The translations under genes were made by a program, and so were the position numbers. Below are positions 8,949 through 46,435 of a stretch of DNA of 64,000 nt, piece after piece (the first letter of the stretch is position 1; each line of letters starts with the position of its first letter). A model generated the notes under the pieces. It made no database searches and was not told where the DNA came from. It saw nothing but the letters and a program-made list of their open reading frames with translations. Origin of the DNA: Candidatus Kaiserbacteria bacterium. GTDB taxonomy: Bacteria; Patescibacteriota; Minisyncoccia; Phycocordibacterales; UBA2100. The DNA is taken from positions 5,014 through 69,013 of the forward strand of contig JAIOPS010000021.1 of the NCBI GenBank assembly GCA_021413775.1. The letters run 5' to 3'.

Positions 8949-9001
8949 GCGGGCATCATACCGCAGTCGCTAAATCAGCCAACTGTGGGTATATTTGCCC
9001 C

Positions 9002-11253: not shown

Positions 11254-11259
11254 CCCTCT

Positions 11260-11829: not shown

Positions 11830-11833
11830 ACGT

Positions 11834-12796: not shown

Positions 12797-12838
12797 TATA
12801 ACCTCACTATCAATGCATTATCAAAATCATTTTTTATT

Positions 12839-15545: not shown

Positions 15546-15546
15546 A

Positions 15547-16518: not shown

Positions 16519-16535
16519 GGGGCGGATTGTACCAT

Positions 16536-18509
16536 TCACTCTCCCCGGCTGTGAACCCCTATCTCGCGGACTTTCTCTATGTATTTGAGGACCGTCAAAA
16601 CGTATGCCGCATGTGACCATGTGAGAGGTGTCGCACCCACCTGGTTACCGGTGCGCGGATCAAGCTGCTCAGAGAGCACACCGGATTTCTGGGCATGCTT
16701 GAGCACCCAATTGAAAATATCGCGCACGCGGTCGAGGTCGTGCGCAGTGCGGGCATTGGCGATGAGGAATTCCGCATACCAAAGCGTCGTTACGACCCAC
16801 GGATTACCGGGTGCATCTTTTGAAATCCGGTAGTAGTCGTCCTCCTCGAAGCGGGCGAGGCCTCCCGAAGGAATCCCCGCGGAGAGCGTGCGGATACAGG
16901 TCTCGAATGCGCGCGCCAACTTCGGGTCATCATGTTTCATCACACCGAATGCAAAGACGCCGTATGCGCCCGATATGTCGATGGTCCGGTCGACCACGTC
17001 TCCGCTCTGCGAAGCCGATATCATATTTACAAACGTCGATTTCTCCGCATCCCACAAGTGCTCGAGAATTCCTGCACGCACCTCTTCCGCAGTCCGCCGG
17101 TACTTCTCCTCGTGCGTATCTTTACCGAGTATTTTCGAAAGTTCCGCTGCCGCAATGAGCGCTCCGTATACCGCAGCGCTGGTGAACGTCGAGGTACCCC
17201 GTTTGCGCTCCCACAAATCATACGACTTATCCGGCAGGCCGGTCACGGCGTCGCGGTATCGCACGAGAAAGTTCGCGGCTTTTTCAACGAGAGGATTGTA
17301 CATTTCCTCAAGAAATTCAAGGTCGTGGCTCTTCTCGTAGTGACGGTACAGGGCGTACAAAACCAACGCCGTCTCATCTTCCTGTATCGGGAGCTGAAAC
17401 TTGCCGTTCGCTATCCACGGATGCCACGACGAGCCCAGGCTGCGGTCGGGCAGATATTTATGCATGAAATACCCTTCCGGCGTAATCGTATCCCGACAAA
17501 ATTCGAAAAAACGCTTCGCGACATTTGTATCCCCCGCAGAATCGAGCGCGAGCGCCGTGTACGCCGCGTCGCGGGGCCATACGTACGAGTACGTATCGAG
17601 ACCGTACTGGAGCATGTCCGAATCGGATGATGCGAGAATGCCGCCGCCTTTATCAACCGCCGCTCTGATGTACATGAGGCTCTTCGCATAGAGCCCCGCC
17701 TGTTCCGGTGAAAGTCCCGTGAGCTCACATTTGTTCGCGTTGACCCATGCGTTCCAAAATGCGGTCGCTGTTTTTATGAGATGTTCGGGCGTTTTCTTTA
17801 CGATGTAGTCATTGAGCTCTTCTGCCTCCTGAATCGACTGCGCAGCCGCGAGCCAGTAGTATGCGGTTTTCGATTGCTGAGGTGCGTACGAACCATAGAG
17901 ACCGATGACAGAGTCCGCCGGGCCGTGCTCAATAGGATTTTTACTCAATACGCCGTCGTCCGCATCGCGGTGCGAGCCTTCTTTGCCCTGAAAATTACTC
18001 CTGCCCGTCGCGTAATCTTCAAAAGGCGTCCCGTCCAAGGTAGCTCCTATGAGAAACACCCGGCGTCCTTTGTAGTGGATGACGGAATGCGACAGAGGGT
18101 CGAAGTACGCAGTATCCGAACCGTGAGATTTATATATTTCAAACTGATGCCCGAAGTACAACTTGATGACCCTGTTCTTGCTTCCAAGATTTTTTACCGA
18201 AATGCGACGCAGGAATACCGGCTTTTCGTTGTACACGATATCTTTGAAGGTCAACTCTACTCCGAGGACATCGTGCTTTGCGGTAATGGCGCTCGACAAA
18301 GCGGCATCTTCGCACGCGACCTCAATTTTCCACCTGGAATCCTCTGTAAACCAACTCATCTGCCCGTCTACCCAGACGCCGATGCGGTGGATGTAATTTC
18401 CGCGCACGTGGTCTTCCAGACCGACGTACGGATAGTAGATATCGCGGACCAGCCCGAGCGCATCAAGCGCTACGCATAACTCCCCGTTGGAAAGAACAAT
18501 CGAGCGCAT
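16536..18509 (-). CDS. glycoside hydrolase family 15 (glucoamylase/glucodextranase-like)
   Basis: ORF 16536..18557; start MRSIVLSNGEL at 18509 abuts GH57 stop. (alpha/alpha)6-barrel GH15 motifs (YSYVWPRDAAYT, LWERKRG, GLPxxLDPRTG). Confidence 0.8.
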   Translation of the reverse strand: MRSIVLSNGELCVALDALGLVRDIYYPYVGLEDHVRGNYIHRIGVWVDGQMSWFTEDSRWKIEVACEDAALSSAITAKHDVLGVELTFKDIVYNEKPVFLRRISVKNLGSKNRVIKLYFGHQFEIYKSHGSDTAYFDPLSHSVIHYKGRRVFLIGATLDGTPFEDYATGRSNFQGKEGSHRDADDGVLSKNPIEHGPADSVIGLYGSYAPQQSKTAYYWLAAAQSIQEAEELNDYIVKKTPEHLIKTATAFWNAWVNANKCELTGLSPEQAGLYAKSLMYIRAAVDKGGGILASSDSDMLQYGLDTYSYVWPRDAAYTALALDSAGDTNVAKRFFEFCRDTITPEGYFMHKYLPDRSLGSSWHPWIANGKFQLPIQEDETALVLYALYRHYEKSHDLEFLEEMYNPLVEKAANFLVRYRDAVTGLPDKSYDLWERKRGTSTFTSAAVYGALIAAAELSKILGKDTHEEKYRRTAEEVRAGILEHLWDAEKSTFVNMISASQSGDVVDRTIDISGAYGVFAFGVMKHDDPKLARAFETCIRTLSAGIPSGGLARFEEDDYYRISKDAPGNPWVVTTLWYAEFLIANARTAHDLDRVRDIFNWVLKHAQKSGVLSEQLDPRTGNQVGATPLTWSHAAYVLTVLKYIEKVREIGVHSRGE

Positions 18510-18510
18510 A

Positions 18511-19707
18511 TCAGCCCGACCGTTTTGAAAGTCGTAATCGGAGGTCCGAAAGCGCATTCATGTAGGTCATGTACGCGTCATAGGGTGATTCGTACGGCGA
18601 GAAATACGCGTGTACATCACCGTCTCCGAACCACTTCGTACACATGTAGTAAAAATGGTCCGAGGTCTGGAGCTTGCGCCAATCCTCAATGAGACGTCCG
18701 TCATTGGCAAGAATGACATCCTGCTCAAGAGCGTAAATCGCTTCAATCGCCGCCTTCTGCATGGGATTCCCCACCCAGGCGGTTAAATCTCTGTCGGTAT
18801 CAGCCCACGTGACGGTGTGCGGCATGTCGACTTCATCGCGGACATCGTATGACGCAATGACTTCAGAAGGCGTTTTGAAATCGATGCCGTTATTTTTACC
18901 GAGCTCCTGCGGCAGTTGTTCCAGAAACGCAAATATCCCCGTATCTTCCCACTGATGTTCGCCGAACGTTTCGTAATCCATGAAAAGGTTCACAGTGTCA
19001 CCTTCCGCCGCGCCGAGCCAGGCGCCGTACTTTTCCGCAGTGAGGGGCCACTCCGACCAGTCGCGCGACGAGAACCGGAACGCGAGGTCATCGGACAGGC
19101 GGTAATTTTTCAGAAGGAGTCGCGTATTTTGCGAACCGACCGGTTTGTAGACGTAGTTCGGCGACCGCCATCCGAGTATCGGGTCCCATCCCTCGGCGAG
19201 GATGCCCGCGTATCCGTTGGCGTCCGCCCAGCCGGCGAGGTCATTGCGGTATGAGAGTTCGGTGTTGCGGAAGACCCTGGGCCTCACACCGAAAAGCCGT
19301 CTGATGATTTCACGATGCTTTGTTACCTGCTGTTCGAATTCGGTCGGCGAATAGAAAAAAGCGAGCGAGTGGTAGTATGTCTCCCCCAAAACCTCCACAC
19401 GCCCGGTATCAATGACTTTTTTGAAGAGTTCTATCGCCTCCGGAGCGTAGCGCTCAAGCTGTTCAAGTGCTACTCCCGAGAACGAGAACGATACTTTGAG
19501 TTCCGGATGTTTTTGGAGCAGCTGGAGCAGCAGGCGCGTCGCCGGGATGTACGATTTCGAGGCGACCTTTTCCAGTACTTTGCGGTTATTGAGGTCGCTT
19601 TCCGAACGGTCGTTGAAATATTCCGGGTCAGTACCAATGTCGAAGACCCGGTACTTTTTTACCCGGTAAGGTTGGTGGACTTGGAAATAGAAGCACACAC
19701 TTTTCAT
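18511..19707 (-). CDS. glycoside hydrolase family 57 (alpha-amylase/branching-enzyme family)
   Basis: ORF 18511..19875; start at MKSVCFYFQVHQPYR (19707). HQP motif of GH57 region I and EGW/Glu-Asp core follow. Confidence 0.8.
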   Translation of the reverse strand: MKSVCFYFQVHQPYRVKKYRVFDIGTDPEYFNDRSESDLNNRKVLEKVASKSYIPATRLLLQLLQKHPELKVSFSFSGVALEQLERYAPEAIELFKKVIDTGRVEVLGETYYHSLAFFYSPTEFEQQVTKHREIIRRLFGVRPRVFRNTELSYRNDLAGWADANGYAGILAEGWDPILGWRSPNYVYKPVGSQNTRLLLKNYRLSDDLAFRFSSRDWSEWPLTAEKYGAWLGAAEGDTVNLFMDYETFGEHQWEDTGIFAFLEQLPQELGKNNGIDFKTPSEVIASYDVRDEVDMPHTVTWADTDRDLTAWVGNPMQKAAIEAIYALEQDVILANDGRLIEDWRKLQTSDHFYYMCTKWFGDGDVHAYFSPYESPYDAYMTYMNALSDLRLRLSKRSG

Positions 19708-19795
19708 AGTGTTTGGTATCCATTGTACACCCCGTAATGTAAAAAAATTTCCCTTCGTTGTGTGCATTTCCTGAAGTCCTGTCTCCCGAGGAAAC

Positions 19796-21001
19796 TCACA
19801 CGAGTTCGTGCAGAATAGTATCGACTTTATATGCAGCGTCCGCCCAGGTGAGCTTATCCGCCTCTTCGCGCGCATGCATGCTCATCGTCTCGCTGAGAGC
19901 GGGCATGCCGACAACCGACAGTATTTTGTCGGCCATATCGTCTATGTCCCAAAAATCGACTTTGAGTGCATGGCGCACGACTTCCGCGACTCCGGATTGT
20001 TTCGAAATGATGACCGGCGTCCCGAGACGCATACTTTCGAGCGGCGTGATACCGAAAGGCTCCGAGACCGACGGCATAACGAACAAATCCGCAGTTACGT
20101 ACATATCGTGCCTGTCCGCTCCTGTGAGGAAGCCCGTGAACGTGACGTTGTTCGAAATGCCGAGTTCGGCCGCCAGGTCAAACATCTGCGCATCCATATC
20201 TCCCGAACCCGACACCACAAACATAACCTTTGGATTCTGTTGTAAAACCCGCTGTGCGGCACGCAGAAAATGGTCCGGACCTTTCTGAAGCGTTATCCGT
20301 CCGAGAAACAGTACGATTTTATAACCGGACTCTTTCAGTGAGCGCATCCTCTTGCTCGGCAGACCGCTCGGAGCTGTACTCTCATCGATTCCGTTGTAGA
20401 CCACGCGCACTTTCGAGGCGGGTATGCCGTACTTTTCAACGATGATATTTTTGGTAAGTTCAGAAACCGCAATAACGACATCCGCCGCTTCCATTCCCGC
20501 ACGCTCGATAGTGTATACGTGACTGTTCACGCCATCCGCCCCACCGCTCCGGTCGAATTCCGTCGCATGCACGTGCACGATGAGCGGCTTCCCGGTCGCC
20601 TTTTTTGCTTCGATGCCCGCACCGAAGGCGAGCCAGTCGTGCGCGTAAATAACGTCGAAGGACTCCTCACGCGCGATGCTTGATGCGATTGCCCGGTATC
20701 GTTCGACTTCCTGGAACAGGTCACTGCCGTAAAATCCGCCCGATTCCCTCTCCCGCAGATAGCTCTTCGTCGTCAGGTACGGCGAAAGCATGGAATCAAT
20801 TGCGCGGACGGTAACATTTTGGTCCTCTGCGAATATCATCCGCGCATAGGGAGAGGACAGCTCGAACTTCTTTGGCATGACAAAAAGCACTTCAAACCCC
20901 CTTTCTGCGAGCGAGCGCGTAAGGCCCTGGCATGCGACGCCCAAACCTCCTGAGTTGAAGGGAGGAAATTCCCATCCGAACATCAGAATGCGGGTTTTCA
21001 T
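19796..21001 (-). CDS. GT4-family glycosyltransferase (glucan/sucrose-phosphate-synthase-like)
   Basis: 401 aa; N-terminal GGLGV motif; C-terminal E-x7-E region (PSVSEPFGITPLESM); heads the GT4-GH57-GH15-PGI/PMI-ROK gene run. Confidence 0.75.
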   Translation of the reverse strand: MKTRILMFGWEFPPFNSGGLGVACQGLTRSLAERGFEVLFVMPKKFELSSPYARMIFAEDQNVTVRAIDSMLSPYLTTKSYLRERESGGFYGSDLFQEVERYRAIASSIAREESFDVIYAHDWLAFGAGIEAKKATGKPLIVHVHATEFDRSGGADGVNSHVYTIERAGMEAADVVIAVSELTKNIIVEKYGIPASKVRVVYNGIDESTAPSGLPSKRMRSLKESGYKIVLFLGRITLQKGPDHFLRAAQRVLQQNPKVMFVVSGSGDMDAQMFDLAAELGISNNVTFTGFLTGADRHDMYVTADLFVMPSVSEPFGITPLESMRLGTPVIISKQSGVAEVVRHALKVDFWDIDDMADKILSVVGMPALSETMSMHAREEADKLTWADAAYKVDTILHELV

Positions 21002-21059
21002 GTCCCAATTCTACCAGCAAACAGAGCGCTATCCTGCAACTCGCCCGACATGGTAGGCT

Positions 21060-21818
21060 GTGCGCATGGATTGTCCGCGTGTCGCCATATTTGATCTCGA
21101 CGACACGCTCGCCGAGAGCTTTCAGCCGCCTTCCGCGTCGATGGTCGTCAAGCTCAGTGCGCTTCTTGAAAAAGTTCCCGTCGCGATACTCTCCGCGGCG
21201 GGATTCCCGCGCATCGAAGCAGACTTTTTGCACAAGCTTACGGATTCCCCCCGTATTGATTTCTTTTACATATTCCCTAACAGTTCCGCACAGTGCTTCA
21301 TTCACGAAAACGGCAAGTGGAAAAGCGCATATGATTTCCTGCTCTCCGCTGAGCAGCGTCAGGCGATACGTACGGCGCTCGACGAGAGCGTACGGGAGAC
21401 CAATCTCGAGCTGAACCCCAAATATGAACCGGTTATTCTCGACAGAGACGTTCAAATTGCCTACGCGGCCCTCGGACTCGACGCCAGCGAAGAAGATAAA
21501 CGTGCCTGGGACCCCGATAAGGCGAAGCGCAAGCGGCTGAAAGAGTCTCTCGATAAACGATTGCCGGATTTTGAAGTGCTCATAGGCGGCAAAACGACCA
21601 TGGACATTACGCACAAAGGCATCAACAAAGCGTACGGCGTCCGGTGGCTATCAAAAAAATTAAGCATCCCCGCGAGTGAAATGCTCTATGTCGGCGACGC
21701 ATTCTATGAGGGCGGAAACGATACGGTGGTAATTCCGACGGGTATCCGCACCCGTGCTGTATCCGGCCCCGCCGAAACAGAGACCGTCATCGACGAACTT
21801 CTGAACTTCTGCGCGTAA
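21060..21818 (+). CDS. HAD-superfamily hydrolase, subfamily IIB (sugar-phosphate phosphatase-like)
   Basis: 252 aa; motif I FDLDDTL; Cof/SPP-like cap; YVGDAFYEGGND motif IV; divergent from the GT4 gene. Confidence 0.65.
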   Translation: MRMDCPRVAIFDLDDTLAESFQPPSASMVVKLSALLEKVPVAILSAAGFPRIEADFLHKLTDSPRIDFFYIFPNSSAQCFIHENGKWKSAYDFLLSAEQRQAIRTALDESVRETNLELNPKYEPVILDRDVQIAYAALGLDASEEDKRAWDPDKAKRKRLKESLDKRLPDFEVLIGGKTTMDITHKGINKAYGVRWLSKKLSIPASEMLYVGDAFYEGGNDTVVIPTGIRTRAVSGPAETETVIDELLNFCA

Positions 21819-23061: not shown

Positions 23062-24891
23062 CTACTCAGGACGCGTCCAGAAGTTATTCCAGACGAACCA
23101 GCCCCCGAGAAGAAGCAGGAGAAACACGAGGAATATCCACAGGTAGTTTCCTCCGGGGAGACCCGATGCACCGCCCGCAACTTGAGATTCCGGAGCGGTC
23201 ACAATGCGCGAATCGGAGGATTCCGGCACAACATCACCTTGGGCAACTACCGGTACTGAATTCTCCGCGGACTCCACCACGGCAGTTGTTCGCAGCGGCG
23301 ACGGTGTAGAAACCGCAGAAGCGCTCCGTATCGGCTGCGAGATAACGGTCGGCGCAATGGGTGTTCCGTTCGCTGTGCCCGGCGCATTTTCTGGTGACGC
23401 ACCTGTTCCGAAAGACGGGGCTGCGGGGGACGTACCGCCGGATGTCGGAGAGGGAGTGGGCGCGACGGGAGGACCGTTCGAACCGCCCGACGGGAGCGGA
23501 GCCGGTGCGGGAATTGAAATATCATATGCGAATGCGGCGTCGAGCGAAGGAATCGCTCCGTAGCACGCAACGGCGTGAATAGTCGCAGACGCCGATAATG
23601 CAATCGGAGAACTGTAGAGAGCGCCGGTCGCGCATGTCGGCGTGGAACCGTCCGTCGTATAGCGGATTTCTGTCGCACCCGTTTGCGTAAGAGTCACACT
23701 CTGTGCACCCGTATAACTTCCCGTTACGGGCGATGCGGAGACTGTATCCCCTGTCACCGTGACGATGAACGTGGACGTCGCGGAGTTCAAAGCCGCATCA
23801 GTAGCCGTACAAGTCACCGTTGTTGTGCCCACAGGAAATGTCGAGCCTGACGAGGGCGTGCAAGAGACCGAGACGCTCACATCAACATCATCAGTCGCAG
23901 TCGGGTCCGTAAAGCTCACAACCGCTCCGGAAGAGCTCGTTGAAGTCGCAAATATGTCCGTACCGGTCACAATAGAAGGCGCCGTAGTATCCGTGACGAT
24001 AACGTCGAAGGTGGACGTCGCCCAATTAAACGCGACATCATGTGCCGTACACGTAACGGTCGTCGTACCCAGAGCAAAGAGCGAGCCCGACGCGGGCACG
24101 CACGAAGTACTTACCGCACCGTCCGTCGCATCATTTGCAGTTGCACTGAAAGTCAGCACCGTGCCGGATGCACTTGCTGCGGCGGCCGTCGTGGTTGCGG
24201 GAGTCGTTATGACCGGAGGCGTCACGTCGCCTCCTCCGCACGCATCAATGCAAAAACTCGTATCGTTAGATACGCCGACGTTGTGCACGGAATCCATCGG
24301 AATGATGTGCAGTGTATGACTTCCGTTTGCGAGCACAATTGGCGATACGTACGACCACGAACTGCAGTCCTCAACTGCACCCGAGTCTATTTGGCATGTC
24401 GCCGAGTCAAAATCGTTGTCCGGAGATTCGAAGTCGAACGATGGCGTACTGCTCGCCGCAGGGTATACGTAACCACCGGGAATTACATCGATGGTGCCGC
24501 CGAAATACACAAAACTGATTGTAGGCAAAACAGTATCTTTGGATGCGGGGAAATCCGTACGCGAAGAACCGTTTGTCTGAGAGACATCCACAAGCAAGGC
24601 GCCCTCGTCGAGCGAGGTCGCATCTACTGTCGTGGACCATGCGCCTCCGGTACAAATTGGTGCAACGGCGGGAGAAACAGTATGTAAACTCGAATCACGA
24701 ATAACCAGCGTCACGGGTCCTCCCTCAAGATTACACGCGCCGCTTGCGGGAGCAGCGGAGACGGTCGCCGCCGTTATTTGGGGGACGAATACGTTGACGA
24801 GGCCGTCACCACCAGCAAAGACAGTACCGGCCGACAAAAGAAAACCAAGGCCTGCGACAGCCGCTACACCGCCTCGAAGCGGAATATTCAT
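23062..24891 (-). CDS. cell-surface protein with two HYR-like Cys-containing repeats, Fn3/CHB_HEX_C-like module and C-terminal TM anchor
   Basis: ORF 23062..24948; start at MNIPLRGG (24891) gives a signal peptide. Repeats VSTSCVPASGSLFALGTTTVTCTAHD and VSCTPSSGSTFPVGTTTVTCTATD (HYR signature). Pro/Ser/Thr-rich stalk; C-terminal hydrophobic anchor LWIFLVFLLLLLGGWFVW. Confidence 0.6.
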   Translation of the reverse strand: MNIPLRGGVAAVAGLGFLLSAGTVFAGGDGLVNVFVPQITAATVSAAPASGACNLEGGPVTLVIRDSSLHTVSPAVAPICTGGAWSTTVDATSLDEGALLVDVSQTNGSSRTDFPASKDTVLPTISFVYFGGTIDVIPGGYVYPAASSTPSFDFESPDNDFDSATCQIDSGAVEDCSSWSYVSPIVLANGSHTLHIIPMDSVHNVGVSNDTSFCIDACGGGDVTPPVITTPATTTAAAASASGTVLTFSATANDATDGAVSTSCVPASGSLFALGTTTVTCTAHDVAFNWATSTFDVIVTDTTAPSIVTGTDIFATSTSSSGAVVSFTDPTATDDVDVSVSVSCTPSSGSTFPVGTTTVTCTATDAALNSATSTFIVTVTGDTVSASPVTGSYTGAQSVTLTQTGATEIRYTTDGSTPTCATGALYSSPIALSASATIHAVACYGAIPSLDAAFAYDISIPAPAPLPSGGSNGPPVAPTPSPTSGGTSPAAPSFGTGASPENAPGTANGTPIAPTVISQPIRSASAVSTPSPLRTTAVVESAENSVPVVAQGDVVPESSDSRIVTAPESQVAGGASGLPGGNYLWIFLVFLLLLLGGWFVWNNFWTRPE

Positions 24892-24922
24892 ATTTCTATT
24901 ATACAACGAGGCACTTTTTTGT

Positions 24923-26671
24923 CTAGCCGAACGTGAATGTGTACGCATTGAGACCCGGACTCAATATTTCTATATCTATTGTGTGCTCGCCGTAGTCCGC
25001 CCCCTCGATGAGTTTGTAGAGTCTGTCACTGCCGACCGTCGCTTTCCCCTCAGCATCTACATCTGCCCCCGCCGAGCTTCCCGGCAATGCGCCGTCGATT
25101 GTCACCTTGAGAGACACCGGGGAATCGGCGCTGCCGACGAAGTACACGCTCTTCGCACTGTAACGGAAGCGGATGCGCGCACCTGCTGTCGTATTGACCG
25201 CATACTCAGGATTGAATTGCCACGTGCCGCTCAGATAGAGCTGGTTCGGCCGAATAACGGTCGGCATGACGAGCGTTTGTGCCCCCAACGTGCCGATTTT
25301 CCCGTTTGCGAGGTATTCGTTGCGTGACGCTCCGAAATAGGTTTCCGGCGAGCCGACACTGCCTGCGGAAGGAGTGCTCGTATCTATCGCGATATCCGAC
25401 GGCATCTCCGGCGCAGCCTCGCCGAGCCGGGCGGCGCGCTCAGCGAGCGCTTTCTGTATCGCTTTTTCCGTTTCATCATAGTTCCCTTCTCCGATGTGGT
25501 CGTACACGATGTATCCGTCTATATCGATGAGGTATTTGCGGGGCCAGTACTGGTTGCCGAGTGCGTTCCAGGTCCTGTACTCGTTGTCGAGAACTACCGG
25601 GTATTTGATGCCGAAACCCTTTACCGCCTGCTCCACATTTTTCTGCACCTTTTCGAATGAAAACTCGGGCGTATGGATACCGATTATTTCCAAACCTTCG
25701 CTTTCGTACCGGTCGTACCACATTTTGAGGTACGGCAATGTACGCTGACAGTTGATGCATGAGTATGTCCAGATATCGAGGAGCACGACTTTCTTACCTT
25801 TAAACTCAGCGATGGTCACCGGCTTTCCTTCCGTATTGATGTACCCGTCGGGCGCGACGAGCTCGGGAGCCTTTTGAAATATTTTTGATTTCTCAGAGTC
25901 TGAGAGCTGCGCGGTCGATGTCGCAGATGCGCCTGACGCATTGTTGTCTTTACCCGCACCGAGCAAGTGCTGTTCAATGCGCGTAGCATCAAATCCGTTT
26001 GCGAGCATCCAGGCTTCAAGCTTCGCCATGGTCCCCGTGAGGACAGCGAGCCCGACGAGGAGGAACAGTACGCCGATAGATTTTCTGAACCAGCCGGACG
26101 GATCTATCGCGATTCCGAGCTTGTCCACAAGCCTCTGTCCCAGGAGTGCGATAAGAAGCAAAAAGCCCGAGAGCCCGATGCAGTATGCGATAAGGTCGAG
26201 CGTGCCGACGAGGTAACTGGCGGGAAGCACTGTCGCGAGAATGACGAAGTATGTCGGCGAGCAGCTCGAGAACACGGGACCCAAGGCCGCTCCCATGAGC
26301 ACGTCGCCCCAGAATGACTGCTTGCGATACCCTTCCCCCAGCGCGCGATTCGACGCGAGATTCATTTTGTTGACGATACCGAGTCCGTCCCAGAGCCACG
26401 GGAAAAGCATCGCGACTCCGAAAAGAACGAGTATGCCTCCGGAGACCAGCTCCCAAAACCCTTGCGGGACGTCGATGAATGCCGTGGTGACCTTCAGAAG
26501 GAACGTAAAGAGAAAGACCGAGAGGCCGAGCGATACGGAAATCACGTACGCTTTCCGCCAGTTCCTCTCCCCCGCAACGGAGCCTCCGACGACAACCGGC
26601 AAGAGCGGAAGTACGCACGGCGCAAGCACCGTGAGCACTCCCGCTACAAATGAAATGAGAAAAAGTATCAT
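24923..26671 (-). CDS. DipZ-like thiol:disulfide interchange protein (CcdA/DsbD membrane domain + thioredoxin-like CxxC domain + C-terminal beta-sandwich-like domain)
   Basis: 582 aa; N-terminal multi-TM CcdA-like region with conserved Cys (LAPCVLPLLP, SSCSPTY); TlpA/ResA-like WTYSCINCQ motif; extra ~170-aa C-terminal domain as in mycobacterial DipZ. Confidence 0.7.
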   Translation of the reverse strand: MILFLISFVAGVLTVLAPCVLPLLPVVVGGSVAGERNWRKAYVISVSLGLSVFLFTFLLKVTTAFIDVPQGFWELVSGGILVLFGVAMLFPWLWDGLGIVNKMNLASNRALGEGYRKQSFWGDVLMGAALGPVFSSCSPTYFVILATVLPASYLVGTLDLIAYCIGLSGFLLLIALLGQRLVDKLGIAIDPSGWFRKSIGVLFLLVGLAVLTGTMAKLEAWMLANGFDATRIEQHLLGAGKDNNASGASATSTAQLSDSEKSKIFQKAPELVAPDGYINTEGKPVTIAEFKGKKVVLLDIWTYSCINCQRTLPYLKMWYDRYESEGLEIIGIHTPEFSFEKVQKNVEQAVKGFGIKYPVVLDNEYRTWNALGNQYWPRKYLIDIDGYIVYDHIGEGNYDETEKAIQKALAERAARLGEAAPEMPSDIAIDTSTPSAGSVGSPETYFGASRNEYLANGKIGTLGAQTLVMPTVIRPNQLYLSGTWQFNPEYAVNTTAGARIRFRYSAKSVYFVGSADSPVSLKVTIDGALPGSSAGADVDAEGKATVGSDRLYKLIEGADYGEHTIDIEILSPGLNAYTFTFG

Positions 26672-26952: not shown

Positions 26953-27039
26953 ATGTCCGGATATATTTCACTTCTAATACGTGAAGTATAGGGGCGCTCA
27001 CTGTCGTGTCAAGGCGACTTTACATTCGCTGTGCACAAC

Positions 27040-27405
27040 TCAGCGGTAGAGAGTGCTCCAGATTCGCGCGACCACCTTCCCCACGACCATAGCGATAAGC
27101 GCGACGACCAGCCACGGGTCGATACGATGCATGCTGTTCTGAACGATAATACCGAGAATGAGGACCGCGCTTCCCGCGAGGAATGCGGCACGCCCCGCCG
27201 CCGAGCGATGCACCGCATCCCGCTCGTCTTTCGCGCTTTCCCGCAATATAAAGACGATGAAAGCACCGAACGCGACTGCGGAGAGCGCGAGCATCGTCAT
27301 GTGCGCCATGCTCGGCATCCACAAACCCATCGGGTTCAGAAGAAACACCGCGAGTACGCAGAAAATCAGAGCGCTCACAATCTCGGGCATCATATCTTTT
27401 GTCAT
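27040..27405 (-). CDS. DUF2178-like small membrane protein (partner of XRE regulator)
   Basis: 121 aa, 3-4 predicted TM segments; start overlaps XRE gene stop by 4 nt (ATGA). Confidence 0.5.
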   Translation of the reverse strand: MTKDMMPEIVSALIFCVLAVFLLNPMGLWMPSMAHMTMLALSAVAFGAFIVFILRESAKDERDAVHRSAAGRAAFLAGSAVLILGIIVQNSMHRIDPWLVVALIAMVVGKVVARIWSTLYR

Positions 27406-27608
27406 AGGCTGAAAATATCGTCTACATTCTTTTTAAAATAACGCGCAAGCTTGAGAGCAAGGAGAACTGACGGCGTATAATTCCCCTTCTCTATCGCGAT
27501 GACGGTTTGCCTGCTTACCCCGACCCTCTCCGCAAGCTCCTCCTGCGTCACTCCCGCTTTTTCGCGCAGTGCTTGCACCGTGTTCTTCACTTCTTCGCGC
27601 ATGGACAT
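27402..27608 (-). CDS. XRE-family (Cro/C1-type HTH) transcriptional regulator
   Basis: 68 aa; GVTQEELAERVGVSRQTVIAIEKG is a classic HTH_3/HTH_26 signature (YozG-like). Confidence 0.7.
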   Translation of the reverse strand: MSMREEVKNTVQALREKAGVTQEELAERVGVSRQTVIAIEKGNYTPSVLLALKLARYFKKNVDDIFSL

Positions 27609-27645
27609 GAATCATAGTGTGCACAGACGAAGCGTCAAGGATGCT

Positions 27646-28368
27646 TTACACCGACGGATGATTCTTCTTGAAAAACTCCGCGCGGATTTTCATAACATCC
27701 CTATGGAAGCCGTCATTCTCGCGACGCGGATACGGCAATTGAATCGGGAATTCGGCCTCGATTTTTCCGGCTTTCATCAGAATCACGCGCTCGCCCATCG
27801 AAACCGCCTCTTCGATGACGTGCGAGACAAGCACTATTGTTTTCTTCGTCCGCTTCCAGGCGGCAATTACGTCATCGTGAAGCTCGGCTGTCGTCTCCGG
27901 GTCCAGCGCAGAAAACGGTTCGTCGAGAAGGAGCACCTGCGGGTCAACGGCGAGCGCGCGTGCGATGCCGACGCGCTGTCGCTGACCTCCGGAGAGTTCT
28001 CCGGGATATTTGTGAGAGAGCTCGCGGATGCGCATCGCATCCAGTTCCGCGTTCACGGTCCTTTCCAGCTGCGTCCCGGATTTTCCCGCGGTGCGTAGAC
28101 CGAGGGCGACATTTTCGAATACTGAAAGCCATGGGAAGAGCGCTCCGAATTGAAACGAAACTGACACTTTCTTCGGCCGGTCGACAGTCCCCGTATCGGG
28201 CGATTCCAGACCGGCGATGAGTTTCAACATGGTCGATTTGCCGCAGCCGGACGGACCGATGAGACACGCCATTTCTCCGTCGCGTACCGCGAATGAGACA
28301 TTATCAACAGCCGGCGAGGTTTCCCGTTCGTACGTTTTCGAAACATTTCTGAAAAGTATGAGATTCAT
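27646..28368 (-). CDS. ABC transporter ATP-binding protein (NitT/TauT family)
   Basis: 240 aa; Walker A GPSGCGKST, signature LSGGQRQRVGIARAL, Walker B LLLDEPFSALD. Confidence 0.85.
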   Translation of the reverse strand: MNLILFRNVSKTYERETSPAVDNVSFAVRDGEMACLIGPSGCGKSTMLKLIAGLESPDTGTVDRPKKVSVSFQFGALFPWLSVFENVALGLRTAGKSGTQLERTVNAELDAMRIRELSHKYPGELSGGQRQRVGIARALAVDPQVLLLDEPFSALDPETTAELHDDVIAAWKRTKKTIVLVSHVIEEAVSMGERVILMKAGKIEAEFPIQLPYPRRENDGFHRDVMKIRAEFFKKNHPSV

Positions 28369-28369
28369 A

Positions 28370-29209
28370 TCAGTCGAAGCGGAAGCGTTGCGAATATGTG
28401 ATGAGTCGTTGCCACACGAAGAGATTCAGGACGGCAATCATGAGAACCATGATGACGAGCGCCTCCGCAAAAACCGTGTTGTGTGCGTTGGCCGCCGCGG
28501 AAACGAGAATACTCCCGATACCGAAGAGGTCCTGCGACGGATTGCCGTGCGGAATGTAGGTATGAAGCGCTTCGGCGATGATAATGAGGTTCCAGCCCTG
28601 TGCGACCGCGAGTACCGACCCTATGACAAGTTGCGGAAATACGGCGGGAATGAGCACGCGTCGCACGTATGCAAACCCGCTCAGACCGAAAATGCGGGCC
28701 GCGTTCACGATATCCTGCGGGATTATTTTCAAACCGCCAACAAGCGTAAATACAATATTCCACAGCATGCTCAAGAAAAGAATGGAGACGGCCGCGCCCT
28801 CCATGAAATCCCACCGCACGAACATCACAACGACGACGGGGAAGAATGCGAGAATCGGCACCGATTCCAAAACATCGAATACCGGCAAGAGGATTTTCTC
28901 AAGGAGCCGGTTGTGCGTCGCAAGTATCGCGAGCGGAATTCCTACAACGACGGCGAGAATATACGCGACCGTAATGCGTGCGAGTGTCGCAAACGAGGCC
29001 TCAACAAGAACGTGCCAGGTCGCGACGCCCGACTCCGCGACTTCCGTCTGAAAGAGAGAGACGACAAGATAAATCGCCGCAGCGACGAGAAGGGGCCCGA
29101 TGAGCAATGAGTAGAGCCGTTCGCGTACAGAAACCGGATACGTGAGAAACATGTGATGGGCGCGATGTCGCGGATGCTTCATGATTCCATTGTAACGCGG
29201 CGTAGACAT
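28370..29209 (-). CDS. ABC transporter permease (NitT/TauT family, BPD_transp_1)
   Basis: 279 aa (true start probably one of the internal Met at 29182 or 29152); 6 TM; EAA-like loop; 2 nt before the ATPase gene. Confidence 0.8.
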   Translation of the reverse strand: MSTPRYNGIMKHPRHRAHHMFLTYPVSVRERLYSLLIGPLLVAAAIYLVVSLFQTEVAESGVATWHVLVEASFATLARITVAYILAVVVGIPLAILATHNRLLEKILLPVFDVLESVPILAFFPVVVVMFVRWDFMEGAAVSILFLSMLWNIVFTLVGGLKIIPQDIVNAARIFGLSGFAYVRRVLIPAVFPQLVIGSVLAVAQGWNLIIIAEALHTYIPHGNPSQDLFGIGSILVSAAANAHNTVFAEALVIMVLMIAVLNLFVWQRLITYSQRFRFD

Positions 29210-29328
29210 TCTCCCGGCACGATGCTACAACTCCCGAAGCTTCGTGCCGTTCAGGGAGAACGCCGACTATGATTATGCTCTTCAGCCGTCTTCCGCACTG
29301 CTCACTGCGCGCAAAAATCGGCCTGGCG

Positions 29329-29781
29329 ATGACGCAGGTCGCTCGCTCACCCGAAGCGGGCAGCGAGTTCGATACACTGACTCAGCACCTCCGGCATCTG
29401 CCTGATGACGAATTGCTTTCGATGCTCACCGGCATCGGCTACGACTGCGTAATCGCGCTCGAACACGGTCGCATCATCGGGTACCTCGCCCACCAGCGCC
29501 GCGAACGCGAAACGCACTGCTTCTCACTCTGTTCGATGCAGGGGTTCGGCGGCCGGGGTCTCGCGACCCGCATGACCGAGTTCTGGCTCAGGTGCGCCAA
29601 GTACCGGAATGTCGAGCGTGCCCGCCTGTGGGCCGGCGACCGCCTGGGCAATCTTCGCGATGCGGAACAGATGCGCCGCATCTACCGGCGCATGGTGGAG
29701 AACCGCGGGAACCTTTCGTTCCCCGTCGTCGAACACGCGTGCGGTGAACCCGGATGGATTCACCTGGCACACGCCGCATAA
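29329..29781 (+). CDS. hypothetical protein, possible GNAT-fold acetyltransferase
   Basis: ORF 29269..29781; start MTQVARS at 29329. Weak GNAT motif-A-like QGFGGRGLATRM; low confidence. Confidence 0.3.
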   Translation: MTQVARSPEAGSEFDTLTQHLRHLPDDELLSMLTGIGYDCVIALEHGRIIGYLAHQRRERETHCFSLCSMQGFGGRGLATRMTEFWLRCAKYRNVERARLWAGDRLGNLRDAEQMRRIYRRMVENRGNLSFPVVEHACGEPGWIHLAHAA

Positions 29782-29875
29782 ACGAGACTCCTTTAAAAAC
29801 AGAAGGGCCGCCCGCTTGGCGGCCCTTTCGATGTATCTGCGCACGTACGCAGACTTTCGCTGATATAATTCTCCG

Positions 29876-32555: not shown

Positions 32556-32591
32556 GTTTTCATTGTCTCCGAATGCGGGTACAATCGCAGC

Positions 32592-33083
32592 ATGCCCGAT
32601 ACACAGCAGCATGACATCGACCGCGCCTTTCTCTTACAGGTAGTTCAGCCGGCACTCGTCGGGCTGATTGACGGTTCCGTGTCGACGCTTGCACCCTTGT
32701 TCGCTGCGGCGTTCGCGAGCGGAAACCCCCATGTCGCCTTCCTCGTAGGAACAGCAGCAGCTATCGGCGCAGGTATTTCAATGGCTTTTGCGGAGGCGCT
32801 CTCGGACACCGGAGAACACACGGGACGGGGGCACCCGTTCGTTCGCGGCTCTATCGTCGGATGCGCAACTTTCTTCGGCGGTATCTTCCATACGCTGCCC
32901 TTTCTTCTTTCGTCCCTCAGCGCAGCGCTCTACTTTGCGTACATCATTGTGGCCATTGAACTGCTCGCCATCGGCTACATACGGTTCCGCTACTTCAAGC
33001 TCGGTTTCTGGTGGTCCGTAGCGCAGGTCATTTTCGGCGGCGCACTTGTGCTCGCAGCCGGCATCCTCATCGGCGCCGCCTAG
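32592..33083 (+). CDS. VIT1/CCC1-like (DUF125) membrane protein
   Basis: 163 aa; DGSVSTLAPLFAAAFA motif reminiscent of the VIT family; C-terminal TM pair. Confidence 0.45.
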   Translation: MPDTQQHDIDRAFLLQVVQPALVGLIDGSVSTLAPLFAAAFASGNPHVAFLVGTAAAIGAGISMAFAEALSDTGEHTGRGHPFVRGSIVGCATFFGGIFHTLPFLLSSLSAALYFAYIIVAIELLAIGYIRFRYFKLGFWWSVAQVIFGGALVLAAGILIGAA

Positions 33084-33548
33084 TTACTTCCGGATTTTCG
33101 AGCGGCAGTTCTTCGAACCGCACCGGCAACCGACCGGTCTGATGAATTCGTTGAAGTATTCGTCCCCGTAGTCAATGGTGAGCTCTTCACCCGCGGCAAT
33201 ACTCCGCGCCGCATATATCATAATGTGACCTTCCTTGTCTGCGCCTTTTTCAATCTCCGCCTCCGTATTCGGATCGCATGAATGATTGATGTACCGCGCG
33301 GGATTTGATGTCGCTTCCCCGTCGACTGTCCACGTATCATCGATTTCAAAGAGGTATCTGCCCTTGTGCTCGTCCGCCTCCTTTGTGGGAATCCGTATTC
33401 CCGAATACTCCACGACGAAATCGCCCTTTTTATAATTGCGCAGAGCAAAAAGACCCATGCCGACACCTTCCTGCATCGAGGTCTTCACTTCAAAATCATC
33501 GTGCGCCATAGATTCGTGAGTATACTGCGCGGATTCCCGATTTCCCAC
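33084..33548 (-). CDS. SET-domain protein (putative protein lysine methyltransferase)
   Basis: 154 aa (or 140 aa from Met at 33506); canonical SET motifs RYINHSCDPN and ELTIDYG, plus Cys-rich post-SET CRCGSKNCR. Confidence 0.7.
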   Translation of the reverse strand: MGNRESAQYTHESMAHDDFEVKTSMQEGVGMGLFALRNYKKGDFVVEYSGIRIPTKEADEHKGRYLFEIDDTWTVDGEATSNPARYINHSCDPNTEAEIEKGADKEGHIMIYAARSIAAGEELTIDYGDEYFNEFIRPVGCRCGSKNCRSKIRK

Positions 33549-33599
33549 CTCGCCCGCGGCGCGACTGGATTATCTTCCTGGGTGTTGCATAATGGCGCC

Positions 33600-34862
33600 A
33601 TGTCGAAGCGCGAAAAAATCTCCACCGAAAGCTATAAGGGTGTACGCGACTTCTATCCTGAAGACCAGTTTTTGCAGCGCTACATGTTCGAACACATGGA
33701 ACGCGTCTGTGAACTCTACGGCTACGAAGAATACAGCGCATCCGTACTGGAGCCCGCCGAACTGTACCGCTCGAAGAGTTCTCAGGAAATCGTCAACGAA
33801 CAGACATATACGTTTACGGACCGGGGCGACCGTGAAGTCACTCTCCGCCCGGAAATGACACCGACGTTTGCCCGCATGATGGCCGCCCGCGCACGTGACA
33901 TGGCACTCCCTGCCCGATGGTATTCGATACCGAACCTCTTCCGGTACGAGCGTCCGCAAAAAGGGCGCTTGCGTGAACACTGGCAGCTGAATGCGGACAT
34001 CGTCGGCGCTTCAGGCGTTGAGGCCGATGCCGAGATTATATCGCTGGCTCATGCAATCATGCGCTCTCTCGGCGCAGAAGAGCGTGATTTTGAAATCCGT
34101 GTCTCCGACAGGCGCATTCTCGACGCCGTTTACAATTCCGTCGGCATCGCGAAAGAGTACGCGGCTGATGTCACCAGACTGCTCGATCGGCGCGCGAAAA
34201 TAGACGACTTTGAGGCCCAACTCACGGAGATGATTGCGCACGAAGAGAAGGCGGTAAAACTCATCGAGGAGCTCGAGCACATCACTTCGACGGCATACCT
34301 TGAAGAGCTTCGCGTCATGCTTGAACAGCTCGGCGTACGCAACATGATTGTCGACACATCAATCACGCGCGGGTTTGATTACTACACCGGCATGATATTT
34401 GAAGTTTTCGATACATCTCCGGATAACCGCCGCTCACTCTTCGGCGGAGGACGGTACGACAACCTGCTCTCCATGTTCGGCGGCGATAAGATTCCCGCCG
34501 TCGGATTCGGCATGGGCGACGTGACGGCGCGTGACTTTCTGGAGACCCACAATCTTCTGCCTGAGTATGCGCCCGCAACAGAGCTCATGCTCTGCATTGT
34601 GGAAGACGACGCAACATCTCACGCGATGCGCCTCGCACAGGACCTGCGCCGCGAGGATGTGACGGTCGCGGTAAACTTTTCCGGCAAACGCATTGGCGAC
34701 CAGATTCGTCAGGCTGACAAGATGAAAATACCGTTCGTCATCGCCATAGGTGCGAAAGAACGCGACAGCGGACGTTACACGATTAAGAATCTCTCGACCG
34801 GCGCGGAAATGACGCTCCCGGCGGACCGCATTGCGGAGCATTTGTTCTCCTCGCTCGGTTAA
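33600..34862 (+). CDS. hisS: histidyl-tRNA synthetase
   Basis: ORF 33366..34862; start at MSKREK (33600). Class II motifs (RPEMTPTFARMMA, FRYERPQKGRLREHWQ, RGFDYYTG) and C-terminal anticodon-binding domain. Confidence 0.9.
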   Translation: MSKREKISTESYKGVRDFYPEDQFLQRYMFEHMERVCELYGYEEYSASVLEPAELYRSKSSQEIVNEQTYTFTDRGDREVTLRPEMTPTFARMMAARARDMALPARWYSIPNLFRYERPQKGRLREHWQLNADIVGASGVEADAEIISLAHAIMRSLGAEERDFEIRVSDRRILDAVYNSVGIAKEYAADVTRLLDRRAKIDDFEAQLTEMIAHEEKAVKLIEELEHITSTAYLEELRVMLEQLGVRNMIVDTSITRGFDYYTGMIFEVFDTSPDNRRSLFGGGRYDNLLSMFGGDKIPAVGFGMGDVTARDFLETHNLLPEYAPATELMLCIVEDDATSHAMRLAQDLRREDVTVAVNFSGKRIGDQIRQADKMKIPFVIAIGAKERDSGRYTIKNLSTGAEMTLPADRIAEHLFSSLG

Positions 34863-34888: not shown

Positions 34889-35464
34889 ATGCGGGTCGTT
34901 ACATTTGATATTGAAACGGCGAATTGGTTGGCGGATACGGGGTCAAGCGATGTCACTGCACTCTCTATTGCCATCGTCTGCATTCACGATTCCGAGACGG
35001 ACACATACTCAAGCTATCTGGAGTCCGAATTGCCGCAACTCTGGCCGATACTTGAACGCACAGACGTACTCGTGGGGTACAACTCGGACCACTTCGATGT
35101 TCCGCTCCTGAATAAGTACTATCCCGGCGACCTTACGCGCATCAAGAGCCTCGATTTGCTCAAAGAGGTGCACGCTTCACTCGGGAGGAGGTTGCGGCTC
35201 GATGCCATTGCAGAGGGTACGCTCGGCGTAAAGAAAAGCGGTTCCGGTTCCCAATCACTTCAGTGGTGGCGGGCGGGAGAGATAGATAAAGTCCGGCAAT
35301 ACTGCCTGAAAGATGTCGAGATAACGAGAAAAATATTCGACTACGCACTGGAAAAAGGCGGCATCAAATACAAAGAACTCGGCAAAACACGGGAAGTAAA
35401 ACTCGACACTTCGAAATGGCTTCTTCCGGAAAGTAATTCGATGACTTTCTCACTCGGATTCTGA
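34889..35464 (+). CDS. DEDD-type 3'-5' exonuclease (RNase_H-like, PolB-exo/YprB-like)
   Basis: 191 aa; Exo I FDIET; Exo II YNSDHFDVPLL; Exo III YCLKDVEIT. Confidence 0.55.
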   Translation: MRVVTFDIETANWLADTGSSDVTALSIAIVCIHDSETDTYSSYLESELPQLWPILERTDVLVGYNSDHFDVPLLNKYYPGDLTRIKSLDLLKEVHASLGRRLRLDAIAEGTLGVKKSGSGSQSLQWWRAGEIDKVRQYCLKDVEITRKIFDYALEKGGIKYKELGKTREVKLDTSKWLLPESNSMTFSLGF

Positions 35465-36141: not shown

Positions 36142-36187
36142 GTTTTACGGCCTCGCATCGGTAACGATGCGGGGTCGCTACATTTTG

Positions 36188-36260
36188 TGCCCAGAGTCAG
36201 ATTTGCACTGACGACCCTTCCCTCTTCAGGGGAATGCTCTACTAACTGAGCTATCTGGGC
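36188..36260 (-). tRNA. tRNA-Phe (anticodon GAA), atypical T-loop
   Basis: Reverse complement GCCCAGATAGCTCAGTTAGTAGAGCATTCCCCTGAAGAGGGAAGGGTCGTCAGTGCAAATCTGACTCTGGGCA folds as a cloverleaf (7-bp acceptor, 5-bp anticodon stem TTCCC/GGGAA, loop CTGAAGA). T-loop reads TGCAAAT (G at 55), which is unusual. No encoded CCA. Confidence 0.65.
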
Positions 36261-36380
36261 GAACGGAACCAAACGCGAACGCGGATACTATATCATTTAT
36301 TGTGGCTAGCGAGGAGTGGGATGGAGGCTTGCTTGCATTTCGTCCGAGCGACGACACGAAAAGGCTTTCAGCCGAAAGCC

Positions 36381-36689
36381 TTATTGCGCCGTCGTTGTAG
36401 ACGACGTCGCGCCGGTGAATCGCTCCTTAAATTCCTGGAGCATGCGCGCCCATTCTCCGAATTGACCTTCCAGCTCGACCTTTTTTCCGGTCACCGCCGT
36501 AAGCGTCGCATCCATTTGTTTGATGACCGGATAGAGGTAACTGAAATAGAGCCAAATCGGGATTCCGAGCGCGAGAAGATACAGTGCGACTTTAAAAATA
36601 CCTCCCCAAAAAGCGTTTCTCCGCATCGCGCGCAGCATTTTATTGTTTTCACGCTCGAGTCGGTAGAGTTCCTGCAGGTCCGGGTCCAT
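36381..36689 (-). CDS. hypothetical small membrane protein
   Basis: 102 aa with central TM helix pair, between two same-strand tRNAs; the overlapping plus-strand 221-aa ORF is Arg-rich and looks spurious. Confidence 0.35.
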   Translation of the reverse strand: MDPDLQELYRLERENNKMLRAMRRNAFWGGIFKVALYLLALGIPIWLYFSYLYPVIKQMDATLTAVTGKKVELEGQFGEWARMLQEFKERFTGATSSTTTAQ

Positions 36690-36904
36690 AGGGCCATCGT
36701 ACCATCAAGCAACATCATCCTCATGCACTTTTCCTCTGTGCCCCCGGCAGGAATCTCCCTCACCTCTCGCTTTGCCGTCGCAAAGCTCGGATTGGGCACC
36801 GCCTCGCGGTTTCGCCCACTGGCGAAACATCGCTCCGGCGTTCGATTCCTGACGAAGAGCGCCGCGCGCTCTTCTCCGGGAGCACCGTTCACTATGTTCA
36901 CTAA

Positions 36905-36976
36905 TGCCCCCGGCAGGAATCGAACCCACATCTCTCCCTTAGGACGGGATTGCTCTATCCATTGAGCTACGGGGGC
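36905..36976 (-). tRNA. tRNA-Arg (anticodon CCU)
   Basis: Reverse complement GCCCCCGTAGCTCAATGGATAGAGCAATCCCGTCCTAAGGGAGAGATGTGGGTTCGATTCCTGCCGGGGGCA. 7-bp acceptor, D-arm GCTC/GAGC, anticodon loop GTCCTAA (CCT), T-loop TTCGATT with a GU-containing T-stem. No encoded CCA. Confidence 0.7.
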
Positions 36977-37055
36977 AAGCGACGAACACGGTAAGACTAT
37001 CTCATATCCGCATTTTCTCCGAGCGCTCTCCGCGGTTCACATGCGCCCCGAAGCG

Positions 37056-40777: not shown

Positions 40778-40982
40778 AACGCGTATCTATCACGGGTGCC
40801 GGGTGCGTCGGGCTCAAGAGTTTTTGTGCGGGATGCGGTAATCGGCCACGGTTACTAATTCGCTTCGCTCATAAGTACCGCCGGCCCGGGCTCGCCCGTC
40901 GCCAAGGCGACATGGCTCCGCCTTTCGATTCCCCGCGTACAGTGCGAAGGCACTGTACGCGTCCCCTCCTCACTTCGTTCGG

Positions 40983-41053
40983 TGCGGGATGCGGGAATCG
41001 AACCCGCGTCTAATGCTTGGGAAGCACTCGTTCTGCCACTGAACTAATCCCGC
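40983..41053 (-). tRNA. tRNA-Gly (anticodon CCC)
   Basis: Reverse complement GCGGGATTAGTTCAGTGGCAGAACGAGTGCTTCCCAAGCATTAGACGCGGGTTCGATTCCCGCATCCCGCA; canonical cloverleaf, anticodon loop TTCCCAA, T-loop TTCGATT. No encoded CCA. Confidence 0.85.
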
Positions 41054-46069: not shown

Positions 46070-46077
46070 TCACTGCA

Positions 46078-46428
46078 CTGCATCGATAAGCCGGGTTCTG
46101 TGCCGTCTCTGCCTTGCGACAGAGAGGTAGCAGCCATGTATCTGGGATGAACGTTGCCGTTCACCTCAAGCGACTCTTTCGTGAAGTCCAATTGGTTCTC
46201 CACGAACACGGTCTTGCACGCAAGTAGGATTTTTGCCGTTGCACCCTCTGTGTTTCCACAAAGGCTGATCCTTGCGGATCCCCTCGCCTCTCGGCTCGGG
46301 CGTCTCTGTTCGCATCCCTGGGATTACCCCGGCGGGCGTTACCCGCTACCCTGCTCCGTATATCTTGCGAAATACGGGCGTGTCCGGACTTTCCTCTGAT
46401 TCTTGCGAACCAGCGACTGCTTAATGCA
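46078..46428 (-). ncRNA. rnpB: RNase P RNA (bacterial type A), ~350 nt
   Basis: Minus strand contains the universally conserved P4 elements GAGGAAAGUCCGGAC (5' half) and ACAGAACCCGGCUUA (3' half). Between them, CAGGGUAGCGGGUAACGCCCGCCGGGG matches E. coli CAGGGUGCCAGGUAACGCCUGGGGGGG. No credible ORF spans the region. Ends are approximate. Confidence 0.8.
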
Positions 46429-46435
46429 GAGGCTC

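Follow-up and report, generated by a model that had tools for sequence, protein, structure and literature searches.

SET genes have been recorded in bacteria since 1998. In 2007 they were counted in 83 of 390 genomes, and by 2014 the number exceeded 500, environmental species included (PMC3980110). Bradyrhizobium, Xylella, Leptospira and Chlorobium are among the bacteria that carry them (PMC3980110; PMC10117894), and a eukaryotic origin was proposed for them in the early literature (PMC3980110). Bacterial SETs have been studied almost only as effectors of host chromatin. The nucleomodulins LegAS4/RomA of Legionella (439-451 aa) combine the SET domain with ankyrin repeats, an NLS and Dot/Icm translocation (PMC3980110; PMC10117894). 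Chlamydial cpnSET/NUE, which is thought to be secreted, has NLS-like motifs reported near positions 121-123 and 206-208 (PMC3980110). Endogenous substrates have been described for two proteins, Chlamydophila cpnSET, which acts on Hc1, and Go1-SET of Methanosarcina mazei, which acts on MC1-alpha (PMC3980110). BurB of Burkholderia thailandensis, a 172-aa stand-alone SET encoded in a biosynthetic gene cluster, S-methylates free methionine. The KMT2/SET1 enzymes (MLL1-4, yeast Set1) possess N-SET and WIN elements and depend on partners of the WDR5-RbBP5-ASH2L type. Finally, a family of stand-alone bacterial SETs of about 140 aa is already annotated and experimentally uncharacterised. Our literature search found no paper on SET proteins of CPR/Patescibacteria and no functional study of the Bradyrhizobium homologue, and a paper on bacterial histones (Bdellovibrio, Leptospira) mentions neither CPR nor methylation.

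The window analysed here, a stretch of 64,000 nucleotides, contains one more member of this stand-alone family. The gene lies at 33084..33509 on the minus strand, starts with ATG and encodes a predicted SET plus post-SET methyltransferase of 141 aa (15.9 kDa, pI 5.1). The earlier note on this DNA had described an ORF with SET catalytic motifs and a Cys-rich post-SET and had suggested a Pfam scan and a structure prediction as checks. Such an ORF exists, its motifs can be read directly in the sequence, and it scores 91.5 bits against the Pfam SET profile (PF00856; gathering score 22.4, E=5.6e-26), which is covered completely (positions 1-105 of 105). Given this score and the coverage of the whole profile, the match is not due to chance. 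The note had left room for chance similarity of the motifs or for an ORF without conservation; the HMM score, the conservation and the dN/dS given below speak against both and rule out a chance ORF or a pseudogene. A second SET copy was not found among the real genes of the 64-kb window.

The SET domain proper comprises residues 17-115 (33165..33461, minus strand, as are all motifs that follow). At its start, residues 15-19 read GVGMG (33453..33467), a putative GxG AdoMet-binding motif in which G17 and G19 are invariant. The NHSCDPN motif (33267..33287), part of ARYINHSCDPN at residues 71-81, aligns with the NHSC of KMT2A/KMT2D; its N75, H76, C78 and P80 are invariant, and it would serve both cofactor binding and, through its Cys, as the source of the first Zn ligand of the predicted post-SET cluster. 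ELTIDYG (33165..33185; ELTIDY being residues 109-114) aligns with ELTYDY of MLL1 and contains the invariant catalytic-site Tyr114. The Cys-rich post-SET is present as CRCGSKNC (CxCx4C, 33105..33128), aligns with the post-SET of the MLL proteins, has invariant C128 and C130, and is followed by a short basic tail, RSKIRK. In total, 26 positions are invariant among 25 homologues of 56-95% identity, among them G17, G19, Y35, N75, H76, C78, D113, Y114, C128 and C130. The linker DYGDEYF(D/N)EFIRPxGC is likewise invariant in the homologue alignment and is specific to the family. Two positions vary more. The position of the Phe/Tyr switch, Ile112 in the window protein, is occupied across 108 homologues by Ile (95), Tyr (7), Leu (2), Phe (2) or Met (2), and at the position of the third post-SET ligand, C135, 37 of the 117 homologues matched have Cys and 42 have His (79 in all).

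Comparison with homologues places the true start of the gene at ATG 33509. The mechanical ORF list begins at a GTG and gives 154 aa (33084..33548, minus strand), and the earlier note had left the length at 140-154 aa; the 141-aa product stands, and the GTG-started 154-aa form falls away. Homologues of 130-148 aa align from the Met encoded at ATG 33509 (the best 120 have a median of 139 aa), and none of the aligned homologues carries the extension. These 13 in-frame codons (33510..33548, minus strand) lie outside the protein: they have diverged in locus L082 and are absent from L083 (82% amino-acid identity), where just 28 nt separate hisS from the SET gene and the whole GTG-ATG stretch is missing. 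A separate assembly with its own, independent gene call has yielded a recorded protein identical to the 141-aa product, and the homologous ATG is used by gene calls in four other assemblies, L081-L083 among them, whereas a protein look-up returned no record of the 154-aa form.

The predicted structure agrees with the motif assignments over most of the chain. The AlphaFold2 model has a mean pLDDT of 80.3 and a pTM of 0.76, adopts a SET fold, and is confident over the SET core, where the predicted beta-fold joins the two catalytic motifs in the pseudoknot arrangement. Confidence falls below 50 at residues 117-126 and is also poor at the C-terminus, as expected for a linker and post-SET whose folding depends on Zn and cofactor. 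The four predicted Zn ligands (C78, C128, C130 and C135) are all present in the sequence, in a post-SET modelled at low confidence. Sequence and model together show that the SET fold is complete, that no cofactor or catalytic motif is missing, and that a predicted four-ligand Zn post-SET follows. The protein is acidic (pI 5.1 overall, 4.6 in the core) and shows no N-terminal hydrophobic stretch, signal peptide or extra domain, the SET domain beginning at residue 17. The family has the same shape, with single-domain proteins of 114-211 aa (median 139) and a median pI of 5.05.

The best sequence matches in the PDB are the SET and post-SET regions of KMT2A-D (E ~1e-22), with all motifs aligned, but the window protein differs from the KMT2/SET1 enzymes in several respects. 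With just 16 residues before the SET domain and 6 after the post-SET there is no room for N-SET or WIN elements, the flanks that serve WRAD/COMPASS partners are absent, and the SET-I insert is shorter; the dependence on WDR5-RbBP5-ASH2L-type partners is therefore not a feature of the window protein. It has Ile where MLL1 has the switch Tyr, its DYGDEYF(D/N)EFIRPxGC linker belongs to its own family, and a rough tree does not group it with the long proteins, which form their own clade. We know of no histone H3 substrate in its host. The likeness to the uncharacterised stand-alone bacterial SETs is closer, in length (about 140 aa), motifs and single-domain architecture; identity is 43-69% to named members and genome loci and up to 95% to metagenome proteins, and the only lineage-specific feature of the window SET is its position beside hisS. 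LegAS4/RomA share 22% identity with the 141-aa protein, which lacks all of their ankyrin repeats, NLS and Dot/Icm features. The longer cpnSET/NUE and Go1-SET offer functional models, likened by their reported activities.

The source of the window can be assigned from its genes to a CPR bacterium (Patescibacteria, class Paceibacteria, "Kaiserbacteria"-like), since hisS, LepA, an FAD oxidase and other neighbours are 65-85% identical to proteins of Kaiserbacteria and 'Nomurabacteria' genomes, including the 859-kb complete chromosome CP066682. CPR bacteria are generally thought to be host-dependent and are regarded as episymbionts, so that the free-living framing that the earlier note had given the gene may not apply. 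Its view that SET genes are rare in free-living bacteria is overstated in the light of the counts of 2007 and 2014 cited above (PMC3980110), and for this subfamily alone a pattern scan that took a single genome for each species confirmed relatives in at least 579 genomes. These span many CPR groups, Bradyrhizobium, Microvirga, Nitrobacter and other Xanthobacteraceae, Pyrinomonadaceae and other Acidobacteriota, Spirochaetota, Bdellovibrionales and Gammaproteobacteria. Those homologues that carry a name belong to Candidatus Kaiserbacteria/Paceibacterota MAGs, where they are already annotated as 'SET domain-containing protein(-lysine N-methyltransferase)'. When 1.84 billion cluster representatives were searched exhaustively with HMMER, 14,839 SET proteins passed E<=1e-3 and 2,278 passed E<=1e-10; the best 150 matches are mostly stand-alone proteins of 110-220 aa, with a few long proteins (44-47% identity) carrying a C-terminal SET, which are assumed from their architecture to be eukaryotic and KMT2-like. 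In a rough neighbour-joining tree computed without support values, the stand-alone bacterial SETs form taxon-coherent clades (the window protein with Kaiserbacteria-like loci, an alphaproteobacterial clade, other CPR clades and an acidobacterial clade), and the four long proteins with a C-terminal SET group together, apart from every one of these. Among the closest relatives in the representative library are also proteins with repeated SET domains, namely P0122 (4152 aa), P0166 (1479 aa), P0182 (1449 aa) and P0195 (799 aa), each with 5-8 separate SET-like stretches.

Substitution patterns indicate that the gene is under purifying selection. Against L081, which encodes a protein of 95% amino-acid identity, dN/dS is 0.047 (pS 0.34, pN 0.021); in more distant pairs the synonymous sites are saturated. 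Despite this constraint, SET is the fastest-evolving of four neighbouring genes: in the 24 loci where all four occur, they are identical to their window counterparts at 81% for hisS, 74% for the exonuclease downstream of it, 74% for the VIT-like gene and 59% for SET. Faster divergence would also fit a protein that tracks a changing external target.

The SET gene is flanked by two genes. Divergently from it runs hisS (histidine--tRNA ligase; 33600..34862, plus strand; TIGR00442, 356.6 bits against a cutoff of 286.75; Pfam tRNA-synt_His and HGTP_anticodon), and convergently a gene for a 163-aa VIT1/CCC1-family membrane protein (32592..33083, plus strand; PF01988, 44.7 bits). The VIT-like character given to this second neighbour from the letters is borne out and can be made more specific: the protein matches positions 161-318 of the 318-position MbfA model NF045676, with a score below cutoff, and would correspond to the C-terminal membrane half of this iron exporter without the N-terminal ferritin-like domain. 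The geometry had also been described correctly. The SET stop TAA (complement of 33084-33086) touches the TAG of the VIT-like gene (33081-33083) with a gap of 0 nt, and the spacer to hisS, put at 50-90 nt, is 51 nt from the GTG and, with ATG 33509 as the start, 90 nt. Directly downstream of hisS, a 191-aa RNase_H_2/PolB-exonuclease-like 3'-5' exonuclease (34889-35464, plus strand) is kept in nearly all relatives at about 74% identity; its best PHROG match is a phage DNA polymerase exonuclease subunit. As to the convergent junction, the SET and VIT-like genes end 0 nt apart in the window, L081 and L164 and 4 nt apart in L082, and overlap by 17 nt in L083. None of these five junctions contains a recognisable terminator, so the two convergent transcripts should collide. 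A bidirectional terminator at the window junction (33083/33084) was considered and rejected, as a pattern scan was empty and folding was like that of shuffled sequences (z = 0.21).

The order hisS <- -> SET -> <- VIT is kept in L001, L004, L008 and L081-L083, with variants in L002, L005, L007 and L009. A metagenome scan with the hisS protein gave 69 loci (hisS identity 73-86%, at least 700 nt of upstream sequence), of which 53 have a SET homologue upstream of hisS on the opposite strand. By a rough criterion, the SET gene is directly adjacent to hisS in 39 of these 53, and by a corrected estimate the spacer is below 300 nt in 42 of the 55 loci that have both genes. The other 16 of the 69 close relatives show no SET gene within the sampled hisS flank, and SET may therefore be dispensable. 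Clustering of the ORFs from 80 loci revealed no cluster besides SET in more than 11 of them, the most frequent being clade-specific synteny or generic ABC ATPases and kinases; with no neighbour conserved across the 80 loci, conserved neighbours are uninformative as a clue and the gene context is silent on the substrate. A functional link between SET and hisS or the VIT-like gene was likewise rejected, the arrangement being kept among close relatives only: in a compact genome with lineage-specific microsynteny, abutting stops and a short spacer say nothing on such a link. The neighbourhood is best read as the product of common descent in a compact genome and not as an operon or functional coupling. 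Nor is there a sign of recent acquisition, since the GC content of the locus, 0.545, equals the window average. An origin in a defence system or a phage was also discarded (no PADLOC match; a PHROG match of just 16.5 bits).

How the SET gene might be expressed can be judged from its upstream region. A scan of the hisS-SET spacer for a sigma-70 consensus found no match, yet two -10-like hexamers stand close to the start codons: TATACT (33519..33524, minus strand) 9 nt upstream of the SET ATG and CATAAT (33588..33593, plus strand) 6 nt upstream of the hisS ATG, the first invariant in four aligned relatives and the second in four relatives. Across the window, 10 of the 60 predicted genes have a TANNNT hexamer beginning at -12, and 20 of the 60 have one beginning at -15 to -12, with an expectation of about 0.45 genes per position, and Shine-Dalgarno-like motifs are nearly absent. 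Enrichment of TANNNT near the ATG together with a near lack of such motifs is the pattern that leaderless transcription would yield, and the genome seems to use leaderless-type promoters. Other cases are TATAAT at 29864-29869 before ATG 29876 and TACAAT at 32580-32585 before ATG 32592. The TATACT at 33519..33524 is a candidate promoter for a leaderless or near-leaderless SET mRNA. In 14 relatives (L084, L085, L088, L092-L094, L097, L099-L102, L135, L150 and L151) the hisS-SET spacer measures just 26-30 nt and is made up of a single symmetric element, (G)AGTATAAT, in which two -10 boxes are merged, reading TATAAT toward hisS and TATACT toward SET. This element may be a minimal bidirectional promoter with overlapping -10 boxes for two apparently leaderless genes, and it matches the pseudo-symmetric bidirectional promoters reported from other prokaryotes (PMC10268837; PMC12825309). 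We infer that the SET gene is transcribed together or in competition with the housekeeping hisS promoter. The hisS-SET spacers of L096, L098 and L114 are of another kind and contain a perfect palindrome of 40-70 nt, e.g. CCCCTTACCACTTTTG...CAAAAGTGGTAAGGGG, between two copies of GTATAA/GTATA; it looks like a small hairpin element that entered the shared -10 box and duplicated its target there.

On this evidence, the gene most probably encodes a functional cytoplasmic SAM-dependent protein-lysine methyltransferase that acts on an endogenous basic target, is vertically inherited, and is probably transcribed into a leaderless or near-leaderless mRNA from a promoter that it has in common with hisS; we give this reading a probability of roughly 0.7. 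By analogy with characterised SET enzymes, the stand-alone SET plus post-SET enzyme would transfer methyl groups from S-adenosylmethionine to the epsilon-amino group of a lysine within a protein. The cofactor would bind at the GxG and NHS motifs, and the target lysine would enter a narrow channel whose walls include Tyr35 and Tyr114 and which the post-SET closes, both steps being modelled on homologous enzymes. The family-specific linker is probably a lid over cofactor and substrate. Ile112 at the Phe/Tyr switch, where MLL1 has Tyr, suggests by analogy with that enzyme that methylation can go beyond a single methyl group, which would make di- or trimethylation possible. The target would most likely be one of the bacterium's own basic proteins, e.g. 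a nucleoid-associated or a ribosomal/translation protein, because the enzyme is acidic, carries no signal or extra domain, and belongs to a family found in bacteria that are not host-associated. The window itself contains no histone-like or lysine-rich substrate candidate; no Hc1 or MC1 homologue was seen in it, and its real genes encode no histone-tail-like motifs (ARTK, ARKS, others; H3-like tail). Inheritance would be vertical within the Kaiserbacteria-like CPR lineage, and expression probably constitutive, from the compact bidirectional promoter common to hisS.

A wider version of this reading makes the protein an ancient, vertically inherited lysine-methylation 'writer' on the cell's own nucleoid or translation proteins and its family the prokaryotic sister or source of the KMT2/SET1 core; we regard this as tentative and, taken whole, rather unlikely. 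A host-directed role is less probable still. Here an attached CPR cell would deliver the enzyme to methylate histones of a eukaryotic or archaeal host, or nucleoid or other proteins of a bacterial one, on the model of Legionella RomA/LegAS4, Chlamydia NUE, Burkholderia BtSET and Bacillus BaSET. The episymbiotic life generally ascribed to CPR bacteria would suit such delivery, the catalytic core is nearest to the eukaryotic H3K4 methyltransferases, and SET evolves faster than its neighbours. The characterised bacterial SETs, cpnSET acting on Hc1 excepted, do act on host histones (PMC3980110; PMC10117894). However, the single-domain window protein has neither targeting modules nor an N-terminal hydrophobic segment, it reaches only 31.8 bits against the cutoff of 550 of the LegAS4 model NF043024, and its family also occurs in free-living bacteria. 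That the SET fold serves here to methylate a small molecule is very improbable: BurB is a precedent for such activity in a small SET protein from a bacterium, but identity to BurB is 27%, the window protein has the motifs of a lysine methyltransferase, the predicted post-SET Zn site among them, and a bur-like (BurI/D/E) cluster is absent. A recent horizontal gain from a eukaryote, leaving a passenger or decaying gene with no bacterial function, could account for the 38-47% identity to the C-terminal SET of long KMT2-like proteins and would echo the early proposal of a eukaryotic origin (PMC3980110), but it is extremely improbable in view of the unremarkable GC, a position kept in dozens of related genomes, the dN/dS of 0.047, the hundreds of bacterial homologues, and a rough neighbour-joining tree that sets the stand-alone bacterial clades apart from the long proteins.

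The remainder of the window holds several further features. Positions 1-14107 form a dense nucleotide-biosynthesis block, in which purine genes (a purB-like end, SAICAR synthetase, an AIR synthase-like gene, purE for AIR carboxylase, purK, purQ for a GATase and purL for FGAM synthase) are followed by genes for DHFR, dCTP deaminase, thymidylate synthase and SHMT. A de novo purine pathway is uncommon among CPR bacteria. A sugar/glycogen cluster at 14727-21818 comprises a ROK kinase, a bacterial PGI, a GH15 glucoamylase-like protein, a GH57 protein, a GT4/GT5 starch-synthase-like glycosyltransferase and a phosphomannomutase-like HAD protein. The gene at 23062-24948 (minus strand) encodes a probable surface protein of 628 aa that combines HYR, chitobiase C-terminal/Fn3-associated and Ig-like domains; it adjoins a DsbD-thioredoxin fusion (24923-26671). 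Several candidate ORFs of 136-297 aa at 27031-29781 (plus strand) and 36300-36965 have no Pfam match and give tblastn matches in the Kaiserbacteria loci L001, L007 and L008. The RNA genes, all on the minus strand, are a bacterial type A RNase P RNA (46071-46432, 122 bits) and the tRNAs Phe-GAA (36187-36260), Arg-CCT (36904-36977), Gly-CCC (40981-41053) and Ser-GGA (54458-54543).

As an annotation, the SET assignment is correct but unsurprising, as public Kaiserbacteria/Paceibacterota genomes already label such genes 'SET domain-containing protein'. What the case adds is a KMT2-like minimal SET plus post-SET that is conserved and occupies a fixed chromosomal position in an ultra-small CPR lineage. 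If the 'writer' reading were true, the protein would be a minimal, partner-free model of MLL-type enzymes that CPR bacteria have kept despite genomes of only about 0.8 Mb, and would suggest regulation based on protein methylation in organisms with very few transcription factors. Should the target prove to be a nucleoid or ribosomal protein of the cell itself, signalling by lysine methylation would be documented for reduced genomes, and the finding would bear on the origin of the eukaryotic H3K4 methyltransferases. At 141 aa, with no sign of export and no partners nearby, the window SET is an easy target for expression and substrate discovery, and it is suited to serve as a minimal model for the roles of SET proteins in bacteria that have no chromatin to attack.
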